A stretch of 63,817 nucleotides of DNA, counting the filler, from Reticulomyxa filosa (Eukaryota > Protista > Foraminifera), in NCBI GenBank assembly GCA_000512085.1. It is 21 parts of 21 records of this genome, joined end to end, with 100 filler letters (N's around TTAATTAATTAA, not from the genome) between each part and the next. Parts side by side here need not be neighbours in the genome. Positions count along the whole stretch, not along the records: positions 45,237 to 55,125 come from ASPP01007755.1; 20 more parts are not named here. One strand, given 5' to 3'. Shown here piece after piece: positions 4,272-55,125 of the stretch. The translations under genes and the position numbers were made by a program. Numbering within the stretch: the first letter of the stretch is position 1; each line of letters opens with the position of its first letter. A model generated the notes under the pieces. That model did not search any database. It saw only the letters and a list, made by a program, of their open reading frames with translations, and was not told the origin of the DNA.

Positions 4272-4330
4272 AAGTTTAAAAAAAAAAAAAAGAAATGTTT
4301 TGATTTTTTTTTTTTTTTGAATGATCACAG

Positions 4331-5382
4331 ATGACTTGGTTGGAGTCAACAAAGACTCGTATTTAATATTGGATAAATTACCGGCGGAATATGACTCGCG
4401 TGTAAAAGCGATGGAAGTGGACGAGAAACCCTCGGAAGATTATAACGACGTCGGCGGGCTGGATAAACAGATCGAAGAGTTGGTGGAGGCCGTGGTGCTG
4501 CCGATAATGCACGCGGAACGCTTTGAACAGATCGGCATCCAACCCCCAAAGGGAGTGCTACTGTATGGTCCGCCGGGCACGGGCAAAACCCTGCTCGCGC
4601 GAGCCTGTGCGAACCAATCGAAAGCCACGTTTTTGAAGCTGGCCGGACCACAACTAGTCCAAATGTATATTGGCGACGGTGCGAAGATTGTTCGAGATGC
4701 CTTTGCCCTGGCCAAGGAAAAAGCACCGGCCATTATCTTTATTGACGAGTTGGACGCCATTGGCACCAAACGATACGATAGTGATAAAAGTGGAGATCGA
4801 GAAGTCCAAAGAACCATGTTGGAACTTCTCAATCAATTGGACGGCTTCAGCAGTGATGTCCGCATCAAAATCATTGCCGCCACCAACCGAGCCGATATCC
4901 TTGACCCCGCTTTGCTTCGAAGTGGCCGTATTGATCGAAAGGTCGAATGTCCATTGCCTAATGAAATTGCCAGAGAACGCATTCTTAAAATCCATGCTAA
5001 GAAAATGACTTGTCATCCTGGTTCATATTATATATACATACATATATATTGTATATGATCATATTATGTGAAAATATTATGAGAAAGAGAGAGACACATT
5101 AGTCTGTATTGATGTATAAAGCATATGTATATAATATCTGTGTTGATCGATTTTTTTGCCTTTGCTCTTGCTTTTTTTTGCTCTCTCAAAAAAGATGTCA
5201 ACTTCAAAGAATTAGCTCGTTGCACAGAAGATTTCAATGGAGCTCAATTGAAAGCTGTCACTGTTGAAGCTGGTATGTTAGCTTTGAGAAGAGAAGCTGC
5301 GGAACTAAGACACGAAGATTTCATGGAAGGCATTGCCGTTGTTCAAGCTAAAAAAAAAACCGATTTGCAATATTATGCGTAG
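4331..5382 (+). CDS. RPT5: 26S proteasome AAA-ATPase subunit 6A (Rpt5), 5'-truncated; exons 4331-5020 and 5195-5382
   Basis: Walker [24 protein letters not shown], Walker [13 protein letters not shown]-terminal HbYX tail QYYA. GT-AG intron 5021-5194 restores [11 protein letters not shown]. Confidence 0.97.
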
Positions 5383-11677: not shown

Positions 11678-11900
11678 CCTAAACATATCAAATATCGTCA
11701 AATTCATAAACAAGCTTTATACAATATTTATTTCAGAAATGCCATACATTTGGTACAGATTTTGAGCAAGTGTTTGTAGATATGGAATGGTTTTTGCAAT
11801 ATTCTGGGTTCAAAAAAGGAAATGACAATAATTGGTATTATCAATATGAACATATTCAATTATTACATCTGTGGAAATGTTATCAAGCATAGATTATTTT
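11678..11900 (+). pseudogene. PUB-like domain fragment, paralog of the 45921-48770 gene
   Basis: Translates across a frameshift as KHIKYRQIHKQALY..KCHTFGTDFEQVF..GFKKGNDNNWYYQ..LLHLWKCY. The paralog reads TKYRQINTESF..KCDRLG..GFQQETDGNWYYH..LPLWQRY. Confidence 0.65.
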
Positions 11901-41161: not shown

Positions 41162-41870
41162 CATTTTATTATTTATCATTGTTATTATTGCTTTGCAATG
41201 GTGAAATATCTACACAACAAACAATATCTTCGTGTCCATTGAAAATATGTAATGATTTTGATGTTTCAATATCCCATAAACGAATTGTTTTGTCATTAGA
41301 TCCAGAACACAAATATCTACCACCATTAAATGGTGAAAATTTAATACTATAAACATAACCAGTGTGTTCATTGAATATTTGTAATTGCTTATTATGTTTG
41401 AAATCCCAAAAACGAATGGTTTTGTCATTTGATGAAGAACAAATGACATTTTGACGATGATTATGATAGTAATATGATGAAAATCTCACACAACACACTT
41501 CAGATGAATGTCCATTGAATGATTGAATTTGTTTGTTGTTATCAACATCCCATACACGAACTGTTTTATCACCTGATCCAGAACAAATCAATTGACAATC
41601 ATCAAAGGTTGAGTAATCAATACCCCACACATAGTTTGTATGTCCAGTGAATGTATTGAGTAATTTGGATGATGAACGAAATGTGTCAAACATGAAGAAT
41701 GTAGATGCCTGTTAAATAAATATTTATTTGATTGATCAAATGAAAAAGAAACAAATGAACTAACATAATTGACAATAATTTTGTCAAAATCTTTGATCCA
41801 TCCTAGTTTAATGTTTAATGTTCGAATCCAGTGATGAATAATTATTTGGATCTCTTCTTCTGGCTGTTTC
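41162..41870 (-). CDS. WD40-repeat protein of an expanded family, 3'-truncated
   Basis: GH..ICSGSGDKTVRVWD, GH..DKTIRFWD and LCSGSNDKTIRLWD repeats; N-terminal exon shared with 10576-10650. Confidence 0.93.
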
Positions 41871-43850: not shown

Positions 43851-45920
43851 NNNNNNNNNNNNNNNNNNNNNNNNNNNNNNNNNNNNNNNNNNNNTTAATT
43901 AATTAANNNNNNNNNNNNNNNNNNNNNNNNNNNNNNNNNNNNNNNNNNNNATACACTTTTGATATGTAATTGTGATAAGCATCAAGAAAAGACCAATTTG
44001 GGTAATGATACAATTGCGCTGCGTTCTGTTGATGTATATGAATTTGTGTCACTTCCTTCACCTCAATGTGGCAGCAATGTAATTGTTACTTGCTCACGAG
44101 CTACAAATTGGCTAATTTGTTAAGAAATTTCTAAAATTGCTTTGCCTGATTTCGATCCCTCTGCTCGCAGGACATTGCTACGTGCAATTACATCCAAATA
44201 GTATTCCAGCAGTACCTTTGCCCAATAATACACTTATCCGACGACGGTGACATTGACAAATTTGAATTTGTATTATAATAAGTTGGTTGATCATGTTTGG
44301 TATTTGATTGCATCTGGCAACACGAATTTGGCGAGCAAGCAATTCGAACGGCGATATTACCGAATGTACTCAAGTGTCTGTGAACAGCACCAATACCATT
44401 TGTTGTAGAGGACAAGACGTCCAATGCTTACACAACAACCAAGATGCAGTCTGCAATGGAATATGAAAAGTTGACGACCAAAGATACTCTACTTGTGAAT
44501 TCGGTCGTGAGAGTAGAATTGTACGTATTACATCTACTCCCTTTCACATCAATCAATGTTCCAACTGAAACACATCTTTTGGATTGTTGTTCAAATATGC
44601 AGCCACAGAGGAAGAATCAAACAATGGCACATCAATTGCTTTTCCTTACATGTCAATGATAACCATGACCACCTCCATTGCATCGATATACAATTTGTAA
44701 GTTGTAGTATCATAGTTCACAGTCCGCTATTGATTCGAGTGATTGATTGGTTGTGCTCATTGCATAGTGTTAAATAAAAAAAAGTTATATCTGCCTACAA
44801 CTGCCGCTGTTTCAGATATATTTGCAATACATCGAAAAGATTATCTCCTTTCAATTACAATATTGAACATGCCGATTTAATTTGTGTCATTGTTTGTTTG
44901 AAATAATATCTATTTACTTCCCGAATATGACGCTTTTTCACTCGTATTTGGTACGACACTTTTGGAGGTAACATTCAATTATCGAGGATATATTCGTTTG
45001 GTTGAATGTGGCCTTTTTGTAATACGTGCCCAAGTTTGCTAGTACATTTTGACATTGTTTGATCGGTCGATGTTCGATAATAGATAGATAAAATCAAGCC
45101 ATTTGTATAATATCGTATAGCTGGCACACAAATTGGNNNNNNNNNNNNNNNNNNNNNNNNNNNNNNNNNNNNNNNNNNNNTTAATTAATTAANNNNNNNN
45201 NNNNNNNNNNNNNNNNNNNNNNNNNNNNNNNNNNNNCGAGACCTAGATTGACACATTCGTGCACTTGGAAGGAAAAATGTGCTATCCGTTCAAGCAAACG
45301 TGTAGTAAGTACGGACTTTAATTCCTTAATTTTTTAAACAAAAAAACTAAAAAAGAAAAAAATTGATCCACGTTTGGTGTGTACAACAATATATACGTTT
45401 CAATTCTGGTTTGGTGCATAAAAAAAAAGAATTTTGGCATTTTTCTAAACATTTATTATCGAATCAGCTATTACATCACAAATACTTTTCCGTGTAAACA
45501 CATTTTTAAAGAAATGGCACCACGTGAAACGATGCTTTAATTGAAGCGTTTTTTGATTGCAAAAAGATTACCTATCGATTTTCAGACGTTTGCATCAATT
45601 AACAGCTCATTAAAACCTTTGTTTATATTATTTTTTTGAAGGTTTTTTTATCAGGCAAAAATAATTTTACAAAGTGATTAATGAAAAAAATCAAACCACT
45701 CTTTGTTTTTTTGTTTTGATGACTAAAATCGACAAACAGAGAATTGCAATGTTTTTGTGTTTTTCTATTTAAACATCTCCACGCAAATACTTATAAACAA
45801 CTTCAGCTTATTTGATTAAAGCATATTTATTATTTTTAAAATAACAAATTGTATCTTTGAATAAAATAACAACAAATAACATGTTTGAGAAATATTTTAA
45901 TTTCATTTATTGTCAGTTGC

Positions 45921-47534
45921 TTATGTATTTCTCTTATCTTTCTCAACAAATGGCAAACCTTTTAAGACAGTAGCTATTGTTGCAAATTCAATGGGGGTGT
46001 ATTCTTGAAATCCTTTCTCTTCACAATAATAAATAGAAAATAAATTAATACGATGATTGCAACAACGGTTTTCCATAAATTTTTTCTTTTTTTCTTCATA
46101 TTTCCTTTCATTATTTGGTTTCTTTCTCCATTCTTCAAACAAAGATAAATGCACAACTGTTGCATCCTCGTCCTTTTGAAGCAGTGAAATCACATAGATG
46201 AGATTTAAATCAATTGCGTGATTCCACATTTTGCTAATACGCACAGTTTGTTGAATGAATTCATCATACACTGTCCATGTTAATAATATCATTTGCGTAT
46301 TTTCATTTTCATTTTCTATTCTTGCATTCCATGTTGTTTTTTCTTTATTTTTTTCGTCAAGAAATTGAGCTGAATTCGATCTAGAAAATAAAATTTCCCT
46401 TTCATGTTCGAATGGAGATATCCATGATACATCACAGCTATGAATTGCACCTGCTCTTCTCATAGAAGGATGAAAATGTAAAATACATCCTCGATCACTT
46501 CTATAAATTTGTGCAACTTGAATATCATCAGAAGTACTTACATGACTTATGAAAAATCCTTGTTTTATTTCTTTAATATTCTCCAATCTCACAGTTGCCA
46601 ATCCACAATATAAATCTATACTTTCTTCTTCTCTTCTTTCATGACTATTCAAAATACTAATAGCTCCTTGTAAACTCCTATCCAAAAAAGACCACTTATA
46701 ATGTTGAAATTGTATTTGATCTTTACTGAATTGAACATTACATGGTTTACCACAATACAATAAAATTGCACAAATTTGATGTAATTGAAGTGGATATCCC
46801 ATTTGTTTATGAATATCATCACGATACAATATCTTCACTTCATTTAATATTGTTAATATTTCATCATTTAATATTAATTTATTTACATCTTGTTCATCGT
46901 AATTAATTGCTTGTTTGATTGAATCTTCATTTTCTTGTTGCCTTTCAATTAAATCAATCAAATAACCATTCTTTATTACTTCATGCAAGAGCAGTTTCAA
47001 TTCATTATTTGATGGATCAATCGAAGATACAGTATCTTGCATCTTTTTGAGCTTGTAAATATCACATTCATACAATAATGGATTAAATTTATGTTTTTCT
47101 TTTGGCGAAGTAATATCTTCCCTTTTAATACTTTTTGATATATTATTTCTTTCAATACAAATTGTATATTTATGAGACACCATACATTTATAATCAATTT
47201 TCCAACGAACTTGTGTATTTGGATAGCCAGAAAGATGCTGATAAATGTCATTCAATAGTGAATCTTCATTTATATTTGATGGAATTGGTGGCTTACACTC
47301 ATCAAATACACATTTAAAATATATTGCTTCATCTCATCTACTCGTAGCTTGTGATACCATTTGTAATTGACTTTTGAAATGTTGAAGTGCTTGTTTCAAA
47401 GTTATTAAATAAGGGTTAAACGGTTTTATATATGTTGAAGAATTTTCTTTCGCAATAACTTGGAATGAATTGAACTCCTGTTTATATAAAATGAATGTTT
47501 GAACAAATTTGTAAATAGGAAGTTCATTTGATGA

Positions 47535-47565
<31 letters not shown>

Positions 47566-47938
47566 GTATATGTGTGAAATATAAATCATTAACTGAACAC
47601 CAATTTGATAATGTATCTCTATTATCATCTCTTATTGTGCGGAAATGCCAAGAATTGTTAGGGGTAATTATCCAGTATTTGACATAATTTGTTTCGACTT
47701 CAGAATAATCATGACGATATTGAATATTGACGTTCAATTCCAATAAAGATCTCTTTGGATTTCCAACTTGTAATGTTCGTACTTTTGATTTACCTTTTTG
47801 ATTGCTATGCAATAATACAATTCTTCGAAATTCATAATCGAATAAGATAAAACAATCTTTCCATTTTCCATTGGATAGCATAGATACTTTGAATGGATCA
47901 TTCCACTTTACTTTGTAGCTATGTCAAATAAATTATTT

Positions 47939-47974
<36 letters not shown>

Positions 47975-48770
47975 TCGTTCGCTTGTCCATTTGTAAATAA
48001 AAAAAAAACAATTCAAACATAATCAAATAGAGTACATTGGTTGTTGTTGAATCCATATTTTATAACGTTGCCACAATGGTAGTATTGTTGTAAAATGGTA
48101 ATACCAATTACCATCAGTTTCTTGTTGGAATCCACATGCCTTTAAAGGCGGCTTGCATATATACAAATAAGTTATTTACATTCACACCTAATCGATCACA
48201 CTTATTTCCTAAAATGCGACGAAATGACTCAGTATTGATTTGACGATATTTAGTAATCGTGGGATGCGCTAACATATTCCAAAATATGTGCAAGCACATT
48301 TCTCTCATTATTTTCTCTTCTTTACTTTCCTCAATTCTATGAAATATTCACACTCACACAAATATTTTCAAATATTAATTTTTTTTTGTCCATTTATTAA
48401 ACGGTTAACTTATTGACGTCGCAAGTAGAAGAAATCTCCTCTAATTCCGTCATTGTATCTAAATAAATTTGCTTCGGCTGTTTCCATGTATCTAAAATAG
48501 TCCTTTTGCTCATCACACTGCCAAAAGCTTCAAGTACTTTCATAAATTCAGTTGTTGTTCGGGAGTTGTTCTATAATTGATGTATTAGTTTGAGAAAAAA
48601 GATATTTGCATAGTTTTGTTGTTAAATGTATGTTATATTAGTTTTCACTTATTCTCCACGATAGAATTCAGGACCATAGTTGCTTCCTCAAGGTTTTCTT
48701 TACAAAGTTTCCAGATTTTTGAAACAATTTCTCTTTCAATTGTTTTGAATGATTCTTGAAGTTGTTCCAT
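45921..48770 (-). CDS. CUE-like + PUB-like + ADP-ribosyltransferase-like multi-exon protein
   Basis: Exon 1 MEQLQESFKTIEREIVSKIWKLCKENLEEATMVL (CUE-like). IFWNMLAHP..KYRQIN..GF (PUB-like). AILLY..LYCGL..HVSTS..DVSWISPFEHEREILF (R-S-E ART pattern with Arg replaced by Cys). Confidence 0.7.
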
Positions 48771-50186
48771 TTGTGCACTCAAGATTAATTCTTCTTTGAA
48801 AAAACTCTTTTTAAAACTGGAGTGAGAACCTTGAACTTTGTTAGTACAGTAAGAAAAAAAAAACTAGGTTTCCAACTTAACTCACTCCATTTTTATTTTT
48901 GATTATTTCGTAAGTGTTAATTTGTTGTTATAGAACAAAGCAATGTTTTACAAACGATTATATATTTTTTGCAATCTTAGAATAGTCATAGTTTTAAGTA
49001 TGCCTTGGAGGAAATCTTTTTATCAAAAGGAAAAACAAATGCCGCAAAAAACATGAAATAAAATACTAAAATAATATTTAAATCTATGTAATTTGTAGAT
49101 ATTTTTAAAAGAGTTTAATTCAAGTGTTATCTTTTTTTGTATCTCCAAAATCATTCTACAAATAAAGTATTAGAATCAAATTAAAGTACAATATTGTTGA
49201 AAAGTTGAAGCTAACGAGAAAAGAGACAATTATCGATTTAATTGCAATTGCCACAGCCTTGTTAAATTTGTTCAGGTTTTTTAACTGCTTCGCGAGTGCA
49301 CAACTCTAAAATACAAAAAGAAAAAAAAGGAATTGGTTCTCGACGAGGAATGTTATTTTCTTTCAGTAAAAGTAAAGACAATAATCACTCTAAAAGTTAC
49401 CTTATTAAATCTATTGTGGGAATCAACGTATATTTACTTTTATTCACAAAAGGGCAAACATGCCGTATTGAATTGGACGACAAATACGTCCAGCAAAATT
49501 TGTTTGGACAAAGTGTTCTGAGCTCTTTAATTTTGAAATATTACTAGAGTCTTATATTGTGAACAGATTGTTCGCCAGAAAAAAGTTTTCCAAGAAAAGA
49601 CATCACTTGCATTACAAATTTGTATTGTTCTTAAATTTATCTATTTCTTTCCCTTCCAATTACAATTCAAAATTCCATGTGAGATATTTACAAATAGAAT
49701 CTTAAAATATGTTACATTGATTAATCGAAGGAAAGATTTACTTCGTTTAATTCAATCCAAAAATTTGTTTTAAAAAAAAAATATTATCCCCGCAACTATT
49801 ATTTGTAAGCTTCTTTCCAACATTTGTATGTGATTGTATTTGTGATGGAATCAGTCAAAGCCATCCCTTTTTTTATTGTGTTGAAGGTTTTCTAATTTCT
49901 ATGTAAAAGAAATTTTGTGATTAGAAAGTGCTTTACGAAACTCAAAATAATATTTAAATGTCAAGTCATTAATATGGTGGCTACGTAATTTATTATATTG
50001 CATGAAACTAGAGCGCACATTTGACTGGTAGCCAATTACAAAGTAAATACTTTAATAATTTCAAAAGCTGGCAGAATGAAGCAAAAAAAACTGTTATCCA
50101 AATTTATTCTTTTCTAACATGATGTTGAGGACGTTATCAATCCCTTTTCAAAAAAAAACTATTAATAAAGTTCTAACATTAAGAAC

Positions 50187-51544
50187 ATGGGCAATCAAAG
50201 CGTAACCCTCTTTCAACCTTTGAAAGATTTGCTTACTCCACTTTCGCACTCTCAATGTGTGCTGCATAAACATGAAATCCTCATTTGTGGAGGCGTTGAT
50301 AAAAAAGATTGCTATCTTATCATACACTCAAAAACGAATACAAGCTTATCTGTAAGTATCCAACGGATGTTACATTAAAAGGACACTGTGTAGTGAAACT
50401 GGTAGATAGCAACAACAAAGACAGAAATCAAATTACTTTATTGTCTTTTGGCGGAGAATATAAACATACATTGGTGATGAAATATGTAAGTGTTTGGGGT
50501 GATGACAATAACAGCGATAATGACAATGAAATAAATAAATTGAAGAAATCAAAGAAGTCAAGCAATTACAATGAATGGGTCCATTTCACAGACAATCACA
50601 ATAATCCAACTAACATTCGAATAGGTGACGATTATAATGGAGTGCGTGCAGTGATTGGTGGAAGCAGTAATCATTTGTTATTTATCACAAATAATCCAAA
50701 GAATATTAGTGTGTTTGATTTAAGCACGTTTCAATTTATTAAACATGATACTTTACCGACAAATAAAAAAATAAGCAATCATTGCTTTATATCAAAGCCA
50801 GAAAATGGACAAGGAATATTGAAATCAAATGAAAAAAAAAAAAGAAAAATTTTTATGAAATGCTGTTGTTTTGTTATAATACAGGATTATCAATTGAATA
50901 TGATGAAGATAATAACACTTTTCAATTTCATAAACTGCCTGTTTGTAATGATATTGCACTATTCAATGGATACGCGTATGTGTATATCAACGATTCCATT
51001 TTGTTCTTTGGTGGATCGAATTATCCGCATATTTCAAAATTAGTGCACAAATATTCAATTCAAGAAAACAAATGGATGACATTTCGAAATGCTTTGCCCA
51101 GTCCATTGTATGGAAGTGTTGCAATATTGAGTGAAGACAGCATGTATGTGCATATAATTGGAGGATCGAATGGAGAAGATGTGTCAACACACATGAAAAC
51201 TCAAGTGAGTGAATGGTTGAGCGAAAAAGAAATAAAAAAAGGAATTGAATTAAAAGTGAAAAAAGAAGAAGAGAATGAACAACAGGACAAAGCGAAAGAA
51301 GAAACTAATGTTAAGCATTATATTCTGTTGTGATTATATTCAAGAGATATTGCTTTTTAACTGTGTAAATAAAAAATTCATTTGATAAAAAAAAAGTATC
51401 AATTAAGAAAAGGCAATACATAAATTATAATTTATGTTTTTTTTTTTTTTTTTTTTTTGAAATAGGACGCAAAAGAAGAAAAAGACAAACAAAACGAAAA
51501 AGAAAAAAAATAACAAAAATGACATCTATGTTATAAATGTATAC

Positions 51545-51575
<31 letters not shown>

Positions 51576-52917
51576 TTGCTGTACTTTTTTTCATTGCATT
51601 GTATTATTGTATTATGTATGCGAGACAATAACAAAAAATAGGCAAACTACGACAAATGGATGAAATGGTGGAATGAAAGAAAACAAAAAGAAAAAACAGA
51701 GATAATTGAAACATTTAAAACAATGTCAAATGAACAATTTGAAGTGTGGTTATTGAACGAGTGCGAATGGAAACATGAGATCACAAAAGATGATATTGGT
51801 GCGTTTGTTTTTCCATTGATAAATATCTTAACTCCGCAACGACAAATCAAGACAGCAAAGAAAAGGAAGTTAATTGATTTGTCTCTTTTTACTTTGCGTT
51901 TGATTGAGTGTAATAACAATACGTGGATAGTTGACAGCATATGTGATAATGGATGAAACAAAAAAATTGGTAAAAATGAAAGAACTGACTTTTGAAGAAC
52001 TTCTTCACCAAGCTTATAATTGTTTAGAATCAAAGGCTTTCCAAAAAATCAACAAAGAAAATTTAAAACTGCAATTGGTTGATATGAAGAATGATATTAT
52101 TGAATCAGATGAAGCTGTGAAGAAAGAATTTGAAAATGATGAGCCTACATTTAAAGTTATTTGGACTTCATTTCAACAACCAGTAATGCTCGGAAGAACA
52201 AAAACAATAAAAGATGCATTGGTGATAATGATTGCTATTAGCGAATATGATGATAATAACATATGGAAAAATCTTAAAAATGTGAAGGAAAAGGACGTTA
52301 AGAATTTCAAACAATTGTTTGAACAAGAATTGAATTATGAAATTGTGTGCAATCCATCTCCAAAGATGACGAAAGATGAAATCGATGAGTTCATTGAAAA
52401 AGTAAAAATCAATTTCAAACTTCGCAAAAACACTAATAACTATGATGGAGTAATTATTATCATTTGTGGACACGGAGAAAATGGAAATATGTTAGTTGCA
52501 AGTGATGGAAAATATGTATCAATTGATAGAATACGTTCATCATTTAATTGTCATGAAATGGAGTCATTCAAAGACTTCCCTAAAATTTTTATCATTGATG
52601 CTTGTCGTGGTGAAAATATTCCAAAAGCCCATGAAATTGCAAAAAGAGGAAATGAGATATCCTATGGCCACAATGACGATGGATTTTTGATAATTTGGTC
52701 AACTACAAAAGGACATCAAGTAGCTGATTTGTCGTTGTTGAGTGAATGCATTAAAAAAGTTGTTGTGTCAAAATATAAGAGTGGCTATCCATTTAAACAA
52801 ATGCTCCAAGATATTAGGACAGAAATTCGAAGCAATAAAAATAGTGAATGGTATTGTGTAGAAAGTCAAGATACCACTGATTATGACATCATTTTTCAAT
52901 CAAAAAAATCTGTATAA
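50187..52917 (+). CDS. Kelch-like beta-propeller + caspase-like (C14) protein, multi-exon
   Basis: EILICGG, LLSFGG, ILFFGG and VHIIGG kelch-like repeats. C-terminal ALVIMIAISEY..IICGHG (His 52471)..PKIFIIDACRG (Cys 52603). Three single-base frameshifts lie in homopolymers. Confidence 0.85.
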
Positions 52918-54487
52918 ATTTTTATTAGTATTATTTTTGCTTGTCTGTTTGTTTATATGTCTCAAATGATCGGGACAATCCAACTCGCCTAATTAAGTAC
53001 TTTGTTTTGTTGTGATCACATAAACATTTCTCACAACTGTAATGTATCCATCCGATTGCACATATTTTCTCGTCTGGCAGCTTACAACAATAAAAGATCG
53101 ATTGTGTTACGAGGACACCAAACAAAGAGTGTTGGCCAAACCTATTCTTTTTTAAACTTTCAGTATGTTTGTTATTGTTTATAATTATTTCTTCTTAACA
53201 ATATTGCTTTCAAAATAAAATATTTTCTAAAGATGATGGAATTTGTCTGCTTATTTTATTATAGTAAGATGTAAAATACAATAAATTACAATTCATGACA
53301 AGAATTAAAAGGAAAAAGAAAAATTTGGTTAATGACATCGAATGTACCTTCTGACATGGAATTACTTGATTAAATTGTTGTATATATTAAAGCATTTTGA
53401 CAACCTCTGCGTTGATTTAAAAAAGTTCAAGCATTTTTCCCTCTTGCATCCCAATCGAAAGATTGCTGAAAAAGTAGCTGCTTTTCAAAATGAAAAACTA
53501 ACTTCAACGCGACAATCATTGGTAAGTGTCAATTTAATCTTTGGGAGAGCCAGTTGTCTTTAAGTAAATATTATTTTTTGTGTAAACGTTCAACTAAAAA
53601 GAAACCAAAGGTGATGATTACTGTGGTATTAATCTGTGTTATGATTCCAATTTGTATTTGAGAATAGTATCATTTTTTCAAAAATTTTTGAGTGATCTGA
53701 TTTTTTTTTGGATTGAAATTTTTCAATCGACCGACATAATATTTTTTTTTGAGTGCTGTCGGAAGAATTCTGTTATTTTATTTATGTGTTGTGTTTTGAT
53801 TTCATTGCATTGACAATATTCAGTAGACTGTAACAAATAAAACTAAATTCCTAAGTTACTTTATCACGATGAAGTGATAGAAGGCAAAGTCAAAATATAA
53901 CTTAAAGCAATCAAATAATAATAAAAAAGATAGTCTAAATTATTACAGCAATAACAACGACATTAAAAAATAAATTTTGCAAGTTCGGCTAAACAAAGAA
54001 AGAAAAAAAGTCAAAGGCAAGTGCAAAATTTGTTGTTTTTTTTTAATTGATTGATGGTTTTGGCTTTGGTTGCACAAGTGGTTACAATTGTAGATTTTTT
54101 GAAAATGAAAATATAGCATGTTTCTTTGGTGCAATCTGTTTGATGATCTTTACAAGTTGTGCAATTATTTAGTTTGTTTCTTTCAAACTAAGGAAAAAAA
54201 ATAAAAAATCGAAAGAAAAAGGTGGAAACAAAAGCATGTAAAATCTTGAAAGTAAAGCAAATTTGTTGTACTTATTGCAACAAAGCAAGATGGATGTGAT
54301 ATCTAAGAATTGGAGCCAGCGTTGTTAAAAAAAAAAAAATAATAATTGATAACTATTCCATCCAAATTATTTCCATGGGTACACATGATAATTAAAAAAA
54401 AAGTTTCAAGTACCAAGAAAAAGCAGATATATATTTATTTATTTATTTTTGTAATGACTCTTATTTTATTGCACTCTAAAAAAAAGT

Positions 54488-55125
54488 TTACCGGAGAGCA
54501 AGTGACACAATGCATACGCAAAACTCGCCAAATACAACGGCAAAGGCCAATGTGTTGGAAGCCCCTTTTTTCGATTCGCTAAACATAGATACGGAGAAAG
54601 CACCCGTCTGCGCATTGGCAGCGGTGATAACACAACTATTTCCATCGAAATACCAAGGCATAATGCAGAAAAGTCCGACTCCAGATTCCTCGCCTACAAT
54701 ACAATCTGAAATCAACAACAGCCCAATAGGCCACTCAAAGTTGACGGCAATAACGATAAGGGTGATAATGTTGCCCGCGGCAGGGATTATCCAGGCAAAA
54801 GGATCCAACATCCGGAGCTGCGCATTTCGCACAAATATAAAATCATCATCGAAAAAATGGAGTAATACAACAACGAGTAAATGAAGCATCCATTAGAGGC
54901 TTGATTATGTCGGACCATGGCGGCAATGATACATATGCAAGCCAAGAGTTTGTTCGCAATGACAAGTTTTGCAACTCCAATTTTCACAAATACACTCTGA
55001 ATTTCTTTGAATATATAATACAAAAATTCGAATATTTTGAATAGAAATGGCAACGAACACACAATAAGTTCATAGAACACAAATCCATTGATACTGCCAA
55101 ATGAATCAAAGTTATTATCGTTCAT
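54488..55125 (-). CDS. Multi-pass membrane protein fragment
   Basis: Two overlapping hydrophobic ORFs with coding-like composition, cut by the contig end. Confidence 0.4.

Follow-up and report, generated by a model that had tools for sequence, protein, structure and literature searches.

RFI_10546, interrupted as assembled, is probably a copy of a Reticulomyxa filosa-specific family combining CUE-like, PUB, PH-like and ARTC-type modules

Introduction

Does the locus RFI_10546 of the foraminifer Reticulomyxa filosa encode an ADP-ribosyltransferase (ART) coupled to ubiquitin and p97, and is its gene, as assembled, intact? A first-pass annotation had read the locus as an effector of this kind, with a CUE-like first exon, a PUB-like exon and a C-terminal ART domain in which a cysteine takes the place of the arginine of the R-S-E triad. 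According to passages of a 2010 review, three positions are regarded as essential if NAD is to be bound, this arginine among them, and arginine-specific ARTs are seemingly lacking in unicellular eukaryotes (PMC3102197). A free-living foraminifer with at least 64 proteins that contain an ARTC-type module has to be set against the latter statement. The DNA analyzed here (the window) comprises 63,817 nucleotides and consists of 21 contigs joined by N spacers.

Results

Gene model and exons

RFI_10546 (deposited model P0001) is a five-exon gene of R. filosa on the minus strand of the window (45921-48770), which begins with the ATG at 48770-48768 and terminates with a TAA (Table 1). Intron boundaries of the GT-AG type are kept at all four introns. 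Exon 1 aligns to residues 8-50 of paralog P0010 and, in P0108 and P0035, to the N-terminus; exon 5 aligns in a single frame to residues 269-800 of P0002. Four paralogs (P0002, P0006, P0007 and P0010) are collinear with all five exons, and the domain order in intact paralogs is two CUE-like modules, PUB, PH-like domain and ART module. P0002 (RFI_09804) and P0165 (RFI_21907) are examples of intact copies. Given these collinear intact paralogs and the ART fold predicted for the ORF of exon 5, the five-exon gene is not a product of chance. The second CUE-like exon, the PH-like exon, the in-frame TGA and the two frameshifts had escaped the first reading of the locus.

Table 1. Features of RFI_10546 and of a related fragment (positions in the window).
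Feature	Position	Strand	Remarks
Exon 1: CUE-like module 1	48649..48770	-	donor AA/GTGAAA (slash marks the exon end)
Exon 2: linker and CUE-like module 2	48410..48570	-	probable -1 frameshift inside
Probable -1 frameshift, exon 2	T-run 48544-48546	-	frame -3, then frame -2
Exon 3: PUB-like domain, KYRQIN	48036..48336	-	+1 frameshift inside
+1 frameshift, PUB exon (exon 3)	T-run 48144-48146	-	frame switch in paralog alignments
Exon 4: PH-like domain	47594..47918	-	collinear with P0002 residues 168-272
Exon 5: linker domain, ART module, C-terminal helical domain	45921..47477	-	TAA 45921-45923
TGA in frame, exon 5	47334..47336	-	splits ORFs 47334..47585 and 45921..47333, same frame
Predicted ART-fold domain	46269..47078	-	ORF residues 86-355, fold match to ART2.2
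LYCGL, strand beta-1, Cys243	46599..46613	-	Cys at the place of R of R-S-E
STS	46530..46538	-	ORF residues 266-268, aligned to SSS of ART2.2 (strand beta-2)
ERE (ExE motif), E311 and E313	46395..46403	-	predicted catalytic Glu, ExE motif
C-terminal helical domain	45924..46268	-	helices at residues 354-469, pLDDT >= 90
Decayed PUB-like paralog fragment	11678..11886	+	separate 1.7-kb contig (10576-12312)

Two introns of the deposited model were rejected. A 66-nt 'intron' across the TGA would delete 22 residues for which paralogs have conserved coding sequence; furthermore, its acceptor is AAG, as opposed to YAG at the four acceptors of the gene. A 36-nt 'intron' would delete ILHFHPSMRRAG and is ruled out by the dipeptide R292-R293, which is invariant in 41 of 41 paralogs.

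The ART module

The 470-aa ORF of exon 5 is strongly predicted to adopt an ART fold. Its model, computed from the window's own sequence, reaches a pLDDT of 90.8 and a pTM of 0.88. In the VIA comparison with 48,161 chains, model residues 86-355 match rat ART2.2 (1gxy_A) with Z 14.9 and rmsd 3.0 (199/223 residues), and all 19 chains with Z of at least 8 are ART enzymes or effectors. The best Foldseek match is ExoS (E 3.8e-5); among 12 matches at E <= 0.001, 11 bear titles of ART enzymes or effectors and one is an anthrax lethal factor chain. The C-terminal ART domain proposed in the first-pass annotation, a proposal that was to fall if no such fold were predicted, is thereby supported. For the C-terminal helical domain, fold matches are weak (Z <= 5.6, VIA).

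In single-sequence searches with the 470-aa ORF, Pfam gave no ART match at E <= 1, and phmmer found no ART match in the PDB. The kinship of this ORF with ARTs becomes visible only via relatives, profile and fold. Compared with Pfam ART (PF01129, gathering cut-off 22.3 bits), the deposited model P0001 scores 18.3 bits. Paralog P0153 lies above the cut-off (27.2 bits), and so do the distant relatives P0079 (34.1), P0083 (26.9), P0130 (23.4) and P0095 (22.4 bits).

The triad motifs LYCGL and ERE are found on the minus strand exactly where the first-pass annotation had placed them; STS is likewise present, one base away from the position given there (46531-46539). In the family-profile alignment, Cys243 is aligned with the R of VYRG in ART2.2, so that the arginine on strand beta-1, a feature of ARTC enzymes, is absent and replaced by cysteine. 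The substitution had been taken for a change in this gene, and its conservation had been left to be checked. Across 41 R. filosa paralogs, the position is occupied by Cys in 33, Ser in three, Tyr in two, Gly in two and Arg in one; across 47 distant foraminiferal relatives, Ser (28) and Thr (12) prevail over Cys (5). Judging from these alignments, Cys, Ser or Thr on strand beta-1 is a family-wide state and not private to RFI_10546.

The other two motifs are conserved in paralogs, as the first reading had anticipated: STS in 29 of 41 R. filosa sequences, E311 in 29 and E313 in 35. Both Glu residues of ExE occur together with STS in 27/41, and STS and/or ExE are degenerate in the remaining 14/41. 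The corresponding counts in alignment A1 are 61/68 for E311, 65/69 for E313 and 62/69 for S266. A second conserved arginine, R207, is found in 43 of the 47 distant relatives; in the R. filosa branch it has been replaced by Ile or Met (36/41). This branch has in turn gained the invariant basic pair R292-R293 as well as an ERRE insert.

The N-terminal domains

A PUB fold in the family is supported by modelling. The KYRQIN exon, recognized as PUB-like in the first-pass annotation, is exon 3. Pfam PUB (PF09409, cut-off 34.3 bits) assigns 13.6 bits to the window piece, a score below the cut-off; nine of nine paralog segments match at E <= 1 (sub-threshold, best 1.5e-5), and among 29 further paralogs 17 match at E <= 0.1 (sub-threshold, best 22.4 bits). 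Sequence-profile searches of the PDB with the PUB-like region and with the whole N-terminal half retrieved no PUB chain. Because the frame of the window copy is broken, the fold was examined on paralog P0002, whose model matches the PUB domain of PNGase (2hpl_A) with Z 10.4 and rmsd 2.2 over 85/100 residues at 22% identity. The five nearest Atlas structure rows for the PUB region are PUB clusters (TM 0.70-0.73). Conserved residues of the PUB-like region in paralogs include the N of WNIL and the K-Y-R motif. In excerpts of published work, the peptide pocket of PUB is described as including a cornerstone Asn (PMC4017264), and PUB as binding the DDLYG tail of p97 (PMC5559722, PMC4017264).

The CUE identity of the two preceding modules is weakly supported. 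Pfam CUE (PF02845, cut-off 21.1 bits) matched none of the window exons, and sub-threshold matches occurred in 1/8 and 3/29 paralogs (best 20.1 bits, P0162). When a profile of 13 CUE-like modules was compared with the PDB, only 2dae_A (E 0.07) and 1wgl_A (E 0.55) were retrieved, both of which we take to be CUE-domain entries, with the FP motif aligned. Eight of the 13 aligned modules possess this motif. Eight of ten Atlas structure rows for the CUE-like module are CUE/UBA clusters, all below the naming bar, and the model of P0002 shows three helices in module 2. The CUE-like first exon of the earlier reading can be identified with exon 1, but its CUE matches are all sub-threshold, and in the window copy FP reads FK, so that the proline is missing.

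Between PUB and ART, a PH-like domain is predicted. Residues 168-272 of the P0002 model match many PH domains with Z 9-10.2 (e.g. 6u3e_A, 5c5b_C and 1u5d_A) and consist of strands followed by a helix at 257-268, i.e. the beta-sandwich with a C-terminal helix cap that is typical of the PH fold. Pfam gave no match on exon 4 of the window.

Paralogs, fusions and neighbours

The family numbers at least 64 proteins with the ART module and 35 that are PUB-like, all from R. filosa. Among 216 proteins, 38 contain PUB and the ART module on one chain, and 21 of these 38 also CUE module 1. The 470-aa ART module is furthermore fused to arrays of TPR (P0003), WD40 (P0016, P0208) and Kelch repeats (P0009, P0213). 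An expansion had been suggested on the basis of a decayed paralog at 11678; the family is indeed expanded, but the sequence at this position is a PUB-like fragment only. There, tblastn aligns residues 85-100 of P0006 in frame +2 and residues 87-139 of P0002 in frame +1 (E 1.3e-9, 49% identity); the fragment has a frameshift of its own and is directly followed by a stop. Since the window is made of joined contigs, the fragment and RFI_10546 lie on different ones. The contig of RFI_10546 also includes a Kelch-like gene and a caspase-domain ORF (75 bits). No ubiquitin or Cdc48 gene is present in the window.

Interruptions of the reading frame

RFI_10546 as assembled is interrupted. The in-frame TGA of exon 5 aligns with T, E or G of paralogs, in a stretch that is coding there; nothing at this locus speaks in favour of a variant code in which TGA is a sense codon. 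In exon 3, four paralogs match frame -3 down to approximately 48153 and frame -1 from approximately 48145-48160. In exon 2, the stretch in frame -3 corresponds to the linker in P0144 and P0019, and in frame -2 the module aligns to residues 68-112 of P0010. With an alternative GT donor at 48659 instead of 48648, the frame would stay open, but at the cost of four conserved residues.

Discussion

With somewhat better than even confidence, we regard RFI_10546 as a copy of an R. filosa-specific family that combines two CUE-like modules, PUB, a PH-like domain and an ARTC-type module with a Cys-STS-ExE triad, and as a copy that is interrupted in the assembly and likely to have been inactivated recently. 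Several observations count against inactivation. Both frameshifts are situated in T3 runs; the 470-codon ORF has stayed open in DNA of 28% GC and departs from the family at only 2 of 107 conserved columns, fewer departures being found in only 3 of 40 paralogs; and all four introns have retained GT-AG. The neighbouring Kelch-like gene on the same contig has two homopolymer frameshifts as well (TT near 50315 and A13 near 50840), which makes assembly error a live rival to pseudogenisation. The organism may have an uninterrupted, working gene, in which case the two frameshifts, possibly also the TGA, would be errors of a low-coverage assembly prone to homopolymer errors. All four frameshifts seen on the 9.9-kb contig, two in each gene, are changes of +/-1 in mononucleotide runs, in keeping with such errors, as are the undecayed ORF, the intact splice sites and the deposited models of many paralogs, which are fragmentary or run into introns. 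Yet the nonsense TGA is a substitution and not an error in homopolymer length, three lesions within 2.46 kb of coding sequence would imply a very high error rate, and indel mutations favour runs too, which at 72% A+T adjoin most positions. An intact gene is a serious alternative that we nevertheless judge improbable, and recent inactivation of this copy remains our preferred explanation; decay is also seen elsewhere in the family, in the degenerate motifs of 14/41 paralogs and in the PUB-like fragment at 11678.

As for the intact members, the combination of domains suggests that the family would likely link ADP-ribosylation to ubiquitin and p97. Their N-terminal half would serve as a p97 adaptor, in which the CUE-like modules may bind ubiquitin and PUB the C-terminal tail of Cdc48/p97, while the PH-like domain could provide contact with a membrane or a peptide; ADP-ribose from NAD+ would then be moved by the ART module onto an arginine of the proteins held there. 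The arginine preference is proposed because of the ExE motif. From the CUE-like, PUB and PH-like domains, we take the putative location to be cytosolic. Because the beta-1 arginine is replaced throughout the family, binding of NAD+ would need other conserved basic residues, with R233/R234, R292/R293 and R318 as candidates for reaching its diphosphate. The sub-threshold CUE matches, the missing FP proline of the window copy and the lack of a Pfam ART match for its ORF count against this functional reading. Alternatively, the module could be a pseudoenzyme that, having lost the beta-1 arginine and, in R. filosa, R207, has given up the use of NAD+ and provides a p97/ubiquitin adaptor with a binding or scaffolding part. 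The family-wide Cys, Ser or Thr, the change of R207 to Ile or Met in 36/41 and the degenerate motifs of 14/41 paralogs point in this direction, and there is a precedent: mammalian ART3 and ART4, devoid of the R-S-EXE motif, are described as inactive in an excerpt of PMC2576468. On the other hand, 27/41 R. filosa paralogs keep STS and both Glu residues, and nearly all distant relatives retain E313 (65/69) and S266 (62/69), a conservation that is hard to explain without catalysis; moreover, R292-R293 (41/41) and the ERRE insert could compensate for the lost arginine. We consider a pseudoenzyme unlikely for the family as a whole. Still more doubtful, in our estimation, is a role of the module in NLR-like surveillance proteins, as their death or conflict effector, with CUE-PUB-PH as one of several sensor or regulatory front ends and not part of a housekeeping ubiquitin/p97 enzyme. 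It would fit the fusions to TPR, WD40 and Kelch arrays, the source name of P0196 ('Pfs, NACHT and WD domain protein'), the bacterial toxins and effectors among the closest solved folds besides ART2.2, the Kelch-like gene of that kind and the caspase-domain ORF (75 bits) on the same contig, and the big lineage-specific expansion with its many decayed copies. Against it, no P-loop motif was found in P0003, P0016, P0196, P0208, P0009, P0213 and P0027, and gene neighbourhood is weak evidence in a eukaryote.

The link to ubiquitin and p97 that we prefer for the family has a wider significance. The triad of the family departs from the R-S-E rule while STS and ExE are retained; should its members be active, they would show that an ARTC scaffold can do without the beta-1 arginine, and they would offer an example from nature in which ADP-ribosylation is joined to ubiquitin and p97. 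The locus RFI_10546 itself is of smaller value, being one interrupted copy among dozens. As a long shot, one might speculate that Foraminifera possess an endogenous cytosolic branch of cholera-toxin-like ARTs that employ Cys/Ser/Thr-STS-ExE without the NAD-binding arginine, and that this branch is directly tied to the ubiquitin/p97 machinery in Reticulomyxa, where ubiquitin itself, or p97 clients that bear it, would be offered by the CUE modules to the ART for ADP-ribosylation on arginine. If true, this would be a eukaryote-encoded counterpart of the action of Legionella SidE or Chromobacterium CteC on host ubiquitin.

Comparison with known systems

Full-text literature searches yielded no description of a CUE-like/PUB/PH-like/ART fusion, and PMC12957317, on AACRNL, deals with a diphtheria-toxin-like ART and is unrelated. 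The vertebrate ecto-ARTs provide both the best structural match (ART2.2, 1GXY; Z 14.9, 199/223 residues) and the best sequence-profile match in the PDB (ART2.2, E 0.024), and agree with the family in the helix motif and in the strands that carry STS and ExE. Unlike in ecto-ARTs, the foraminiferal beta-1 residue is not Arg but Cys here and Ser or Thr in other foraminifera; the R. filosa module is embedded in a larger protein together with CUE-like, PUB and PH-like domains, and it has a further subdomain at its N-terminus and a helical domain at its C-terminus. Bacterial ARTC toxins and effectors (ExoS/ExoT, HopU1, Tre1, C3, iota-like) match in fold (Z 9.5-14; Foldseek E 3.8e-5 to 5e-3) and have STS and ExE or QxE in common with the R. 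filosa module. They keep R-S-E and are secreted or injected, whereas the R. filosa module belongs to an endogenous, intron-bearing gene with eukaryotic adaptor domains.

Legionella SidE enzymes ADP-ribosylate Arg42 of ubiquitin and thus link ADP-ribosylation with ubiquitin. Their mART domains (5ZQ2, 9FGM and 5YSI) match the ART fold with Z 8.8, 8.4 and 5.5, respectively, i.e. more weakly than ART2.2; SidE conforms to R-S-ExE, in contrast to the Cys at the R position in the R. filosa family, for which ubiquitin would be a speculative substrate. With the PUB cofactors of p97 (PNGase, UBXD1, HOIP and the plant UBA-PUB proteins), the family shares the PUB fold (2hpl_A, Z 10.4). Placing a helical module that may bind ubiquitin next to PUB follows the layout of p97 adaptors, and the Atlas PUB clusters include a UBA+PUB cluster. 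The R. filosa PUB stays below the Pfam cut-off, and its catalytic partner is an ART, which is absent from the PUB cofactors named. The loss of the triad arginine also occurs in mammals: in an excerpt of PMC2576468, the R of R-S-EXE is replaced in ART3 and ART4, in the latter by Tyr in human and His in mouse. According to the same excerpt, ART4 has lost the first E of EXE too and is inactive, whereas in the foraminiferal family STS and ExE persist, apparently under constraint.

The predicted ART module

An ART fold, proposed for this gene in the first-pass annotation, is predicted for the 470-aa ORF of exon 5, although this ORF alone matched no Pfam family. The exhaustive search returned 335 relatives of the module at E <=0.001; eight of the 27 scanned matched the Pfam ART family at E <=0.01, four of them above the cut-off (best 34.1 bits). 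Rat ART2.2 was the best PDB match of a 69-sequence profile (E 0.024), with the Y-[S/C]-G of the family aligned over Y-R-G and its STS over SSS. An AlphaFold2 model based on the 69-sequence alignment (pLDDT 90.8, pTM 0.88) found its best Foldseek matches in ExoS/ExoT, ART2.2, XopAI, Vis, HopU1, Tre1 and C3. In an exhaustive structural comparison, ART2.2 ranked at the top (Z 14.9, rmsd 3.0, 199/223 residues, model residues 86-355), and all 19 chains with Z >=8 are ART enzymes or effectors, counting XopAI, SidE and SdeC, whose ART domains are not named in the titles of their entries. Databases already record the relation of single paralogs to ARTs, in Pfam as PF01129 and for the protein P0153 in its source name. 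Full-text literature searches yielded no description of a fusion of ART with CUE and PUB domains and none of ARTs in Reticulomyxa; a further search on Reticulomyxa and ARTs gave only a PARP survey.

PUB, PH-like and CUE-like domains

Pfam PUB was the sole family matched by all nine paralog segments, each time below threshold, and matches were also obtained for 17 of 29 further paralogs. In the model of the intact paralog P0002 (pLDDT 84.4), residues 48-147 resemble 2hpl_A, the PNGase PUB domain from a complex with a p97 peptide (Z 10.4, rmsd 2.2, 85/100 residues, 22% identity), and the nearest five Atlas structure rows are PUB clusters. These results from paralogs support a PUB fold for the KYRQIN exon, which had been read as PUB-like. 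The following segment of the same model (residues 168-272) matched PH domains in number (Z 9-10.2), which predicts a PH-like domain that the first-pass annotation had not recognised; PH and ART are also paired in distant foraminiferal relatives (P0095, Pfam PH 37.8 bits).

The evidence for the CUE assignment is thinner than that for the PUB or PH-like domain. Pfam CUE matched below threshold in one of eight and three of 29 paralogs, with 20.1 bits at best against a cut-off of 21.1. A 13-sequence profile of the first modules retrieved only 2dae_A (E 0.07) and 1wgl_A (E 0.55) from the PDB, both CUE-domain entries, with F-P aligned in each. Eight of ten Atlas structure rows for residues 1-115 of the full-length paralog P0010 are CUE/UBA clusters, all below the naming bar, and seven paralogs are labelled 'CUE domain-containing protein' by the source database. 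In the first module of the window copy, F-K stands in place of F-P.

Family size and fusions

The expansion of the family suspected from the window is borne out by 64 proteins found with the ART-domain query and 35 found with the PUB-like profile, in both cases exclusively from R. filosa. Of 216 fetched proteins, 38 unite PUB with the ART module in a single polypeptide, and CUE module 1 is present in 21 of them as well. The 470-aa module is also joined to TPR, WD40 or Kelch arrays (P0003, P0016, P0208, P0009, P0213, P0196), and in P0208 a single chain holds PUB and ART along with both Kelch and WD40; a P-loop motif was not found in these models. Given such varied fusions, the module behaves like a mobile cassette.

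Triad and basic residues

The triad was counted in 41 near-complete R. filosa modules and separately in 47 more distant relatives. All relatives with an identified source are foraminifera (six Bolivina argentea, four Nonionella stella). Of the R. filosa modules, 33 have Cys at the R position, three have Ser, two each have Tyr or Gly, and one has Arg; STS and the first Glu of ExE are each retained in 29 modules, the catalytic Glu is retained in 35, and 23 modules show the complete Cys-STS-ExE state. The distant relatives have Ser (28), Thr (12) or Cys (5) at the R position. Hence the Arg-to-Cys change noted earlier is present but not private to this gene, and STS and ExE are conserved in most paralogs. 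LYCGL (46599-46613) and ERE (46395-46403) lie where they had been placed, whereas STS had been misplaced by one base (true position 46530-46538).

Branch-specific covariation was observed at ORF residues 207, 233-234 and 292-293 (window about 46455-46715). R207, a second Arg in the helix motif before beta-1, is retained in 43 of the 47 distant relatives and replaced by Ile or Met in 36 of the 41 R. filosa modules. The R. filosa branch gained an ERRE insert directly before strand beta-1, with Arg in 37/41 and 36/41, and Arg-Arg at 292-293 is invariant there. The gained basic residues may stand in for the lost arginines.

Locus and gene model

The window consists of 21 short contigs and 20 spacers, each of 44 N, 12 bases and 44 N, so that features on different segments are not genome neighbours. 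The contig of the ART gene comprises 9889 bases (window 45237-55125), with about 28% G+C at the locus. Read on the minus strand against intact paralogs, the gene has five exons totalling 2463 bases or 821 codons, a length similar to that of the full-length paralogs P0002, P0006 and P0010 (817-866 residues).

Exons and introns of the ART gene and further features of the window
Feature	Position	Strand	Content
Exon 1	48770-48649	-	CUE-like module 1
Intron 1	48648-48571	-	GT-AG
Exon 2	48570-48410	-	linker, CUE-like module 2
Intron 2	48409-48337	-	GT-AG
Exon 3	48336-48036	-	PUB-like domain
Intron 3	48035-47919	-	GT-AG; (GT)n microsatellite at 47940-47985
Exon 4	47918-47594	-	PH-like domain
Intron 4	47593-47478	-	GT-AG; (TA)n run at 47530-47565
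Exon 5	47477-45921	-	linker, ART module, helical domain, TAA
Kelch-like gene	50193-51312	+	1.4 kb from ART gene, divergent
Caspase-domain ORF	51931-52914	+	open, 328 aa; Peptidase_C14 75.1 bits; contig of ART gene
WD40-repeat ORF	41169-41708	-	separate segment
AAA ATPase ORF	4321-5055	+	separate segment; AAA 146 bits; looks proteasomal by sequence
G+C-rich segment	14196-18001		family-2 glycosyltransferase (73 bits), IS3-type transposase (rve, 107 bits)

The deposited protein P0001 (ETO26587.1 / RFI_10546, 'hypothetical protein', Reticulomyxa filosa, a foraminifer; window 45237-48770) was rejected as a gene model: it departs from the homology-based model at four points, none of them compatible with the paralogs. 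It starts 3' of the PUB exon, splices out a 66-nt pseudo-intron around a TGA, loses the coding bases for ILHFHPSMRRAG through a 36-nt pseudo-intron, and extends beyond the natural TAA, departures that evade the frame breaks of the locus. Many paralog gene models terminate by running into the intron 3' of the PUB exon.

Simple repeats like those of introns 3 and 4 occur at many contig ends. The Kelch-like gene shows homology to the C-terminal half of each of the ART-Kelch-WD40 fusions P0009, P0016, P0196, P0208 and P0213. The G+C-rich segment (58-59% versus about 30% elsewhere) looks bacterial, by contamination or transfer.

Decay or assembly error

The assembled sequence interrupts the reading frame three times. 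One interruption is an in-frame TGA (47334-47336) between two same-frame ORFs; it is aligned to Thr, Glu or Gly, and the surrounding stretch is coding in all paralogs compared. Against four paralogs, the PUB exon follows frame -3 until about 48153 and frame -1 from about 48145-48160, a register that indicates a T-run (48144-48146) with one surplus T. Exon 2 switches from frame -3 in its linker to frame -2 in the second helical module, probably by loss of one base from the T-run 48544-48546; the lesion is graded only as probable because of an alternative GT donor at 48659, a weaker reading that keeps the frame open and loses four conserved residues.

We lean mildly towards an inactivated copy: the TGA is a substitution and not a run-length error, degenerate copies are numerous in the family, and a decayed PUB fragment of the family lies on another contig of the window. 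That the gene is intact and its interruptions are assembly errors seems rather unlikely, even though both frameshifts sit in T3 runs and the adjoining Kelch-like gene has two frame changes of its own, one near 50315 at a TT and one near 50840 at an A13 run. The 470-codon ORF has two departures at 107 columns conserved to >=90%, and only three of 40 paralogs have fewer; by our estimate this test is weak, since a very recent pseudogene would show the same pattern, and conservation therefore cannot decide between decay and error. The broken state of the window copy lowers the interest in this locus.

Possible function and comparison with known systems

Motif states, architecture and interruptions are demonstrated here; the folds are predictions. 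CUE domains bind ubiquitin. PUB domains bind the DDLYG tail of p97 (PMC5559722 and PMC4017264), so that, by analogy with these domains elsewhere, intact members would dock on Cdc48/p97 through PUB and on ubiquitinated proteins through the CUE-like modules. There, they might ADP-ribosylate arginines; ExE is tied to arginine specificity in PMC3102197. Alternatively, the ART module may serve NLR-like proteins as an effector of conflict or death, as would suit its fusions to repeat arrays and the presence of the Kelch-like gene and the caspase-domain ORF on the same contig as the ART gene. It may also be a pseudoenzyme: the R, S and E positions are classed as essential for NAD binding in PMC3102197, and ART3 and ART4 are described in PMC2576468 as being without the R-S-E motif and inactive.
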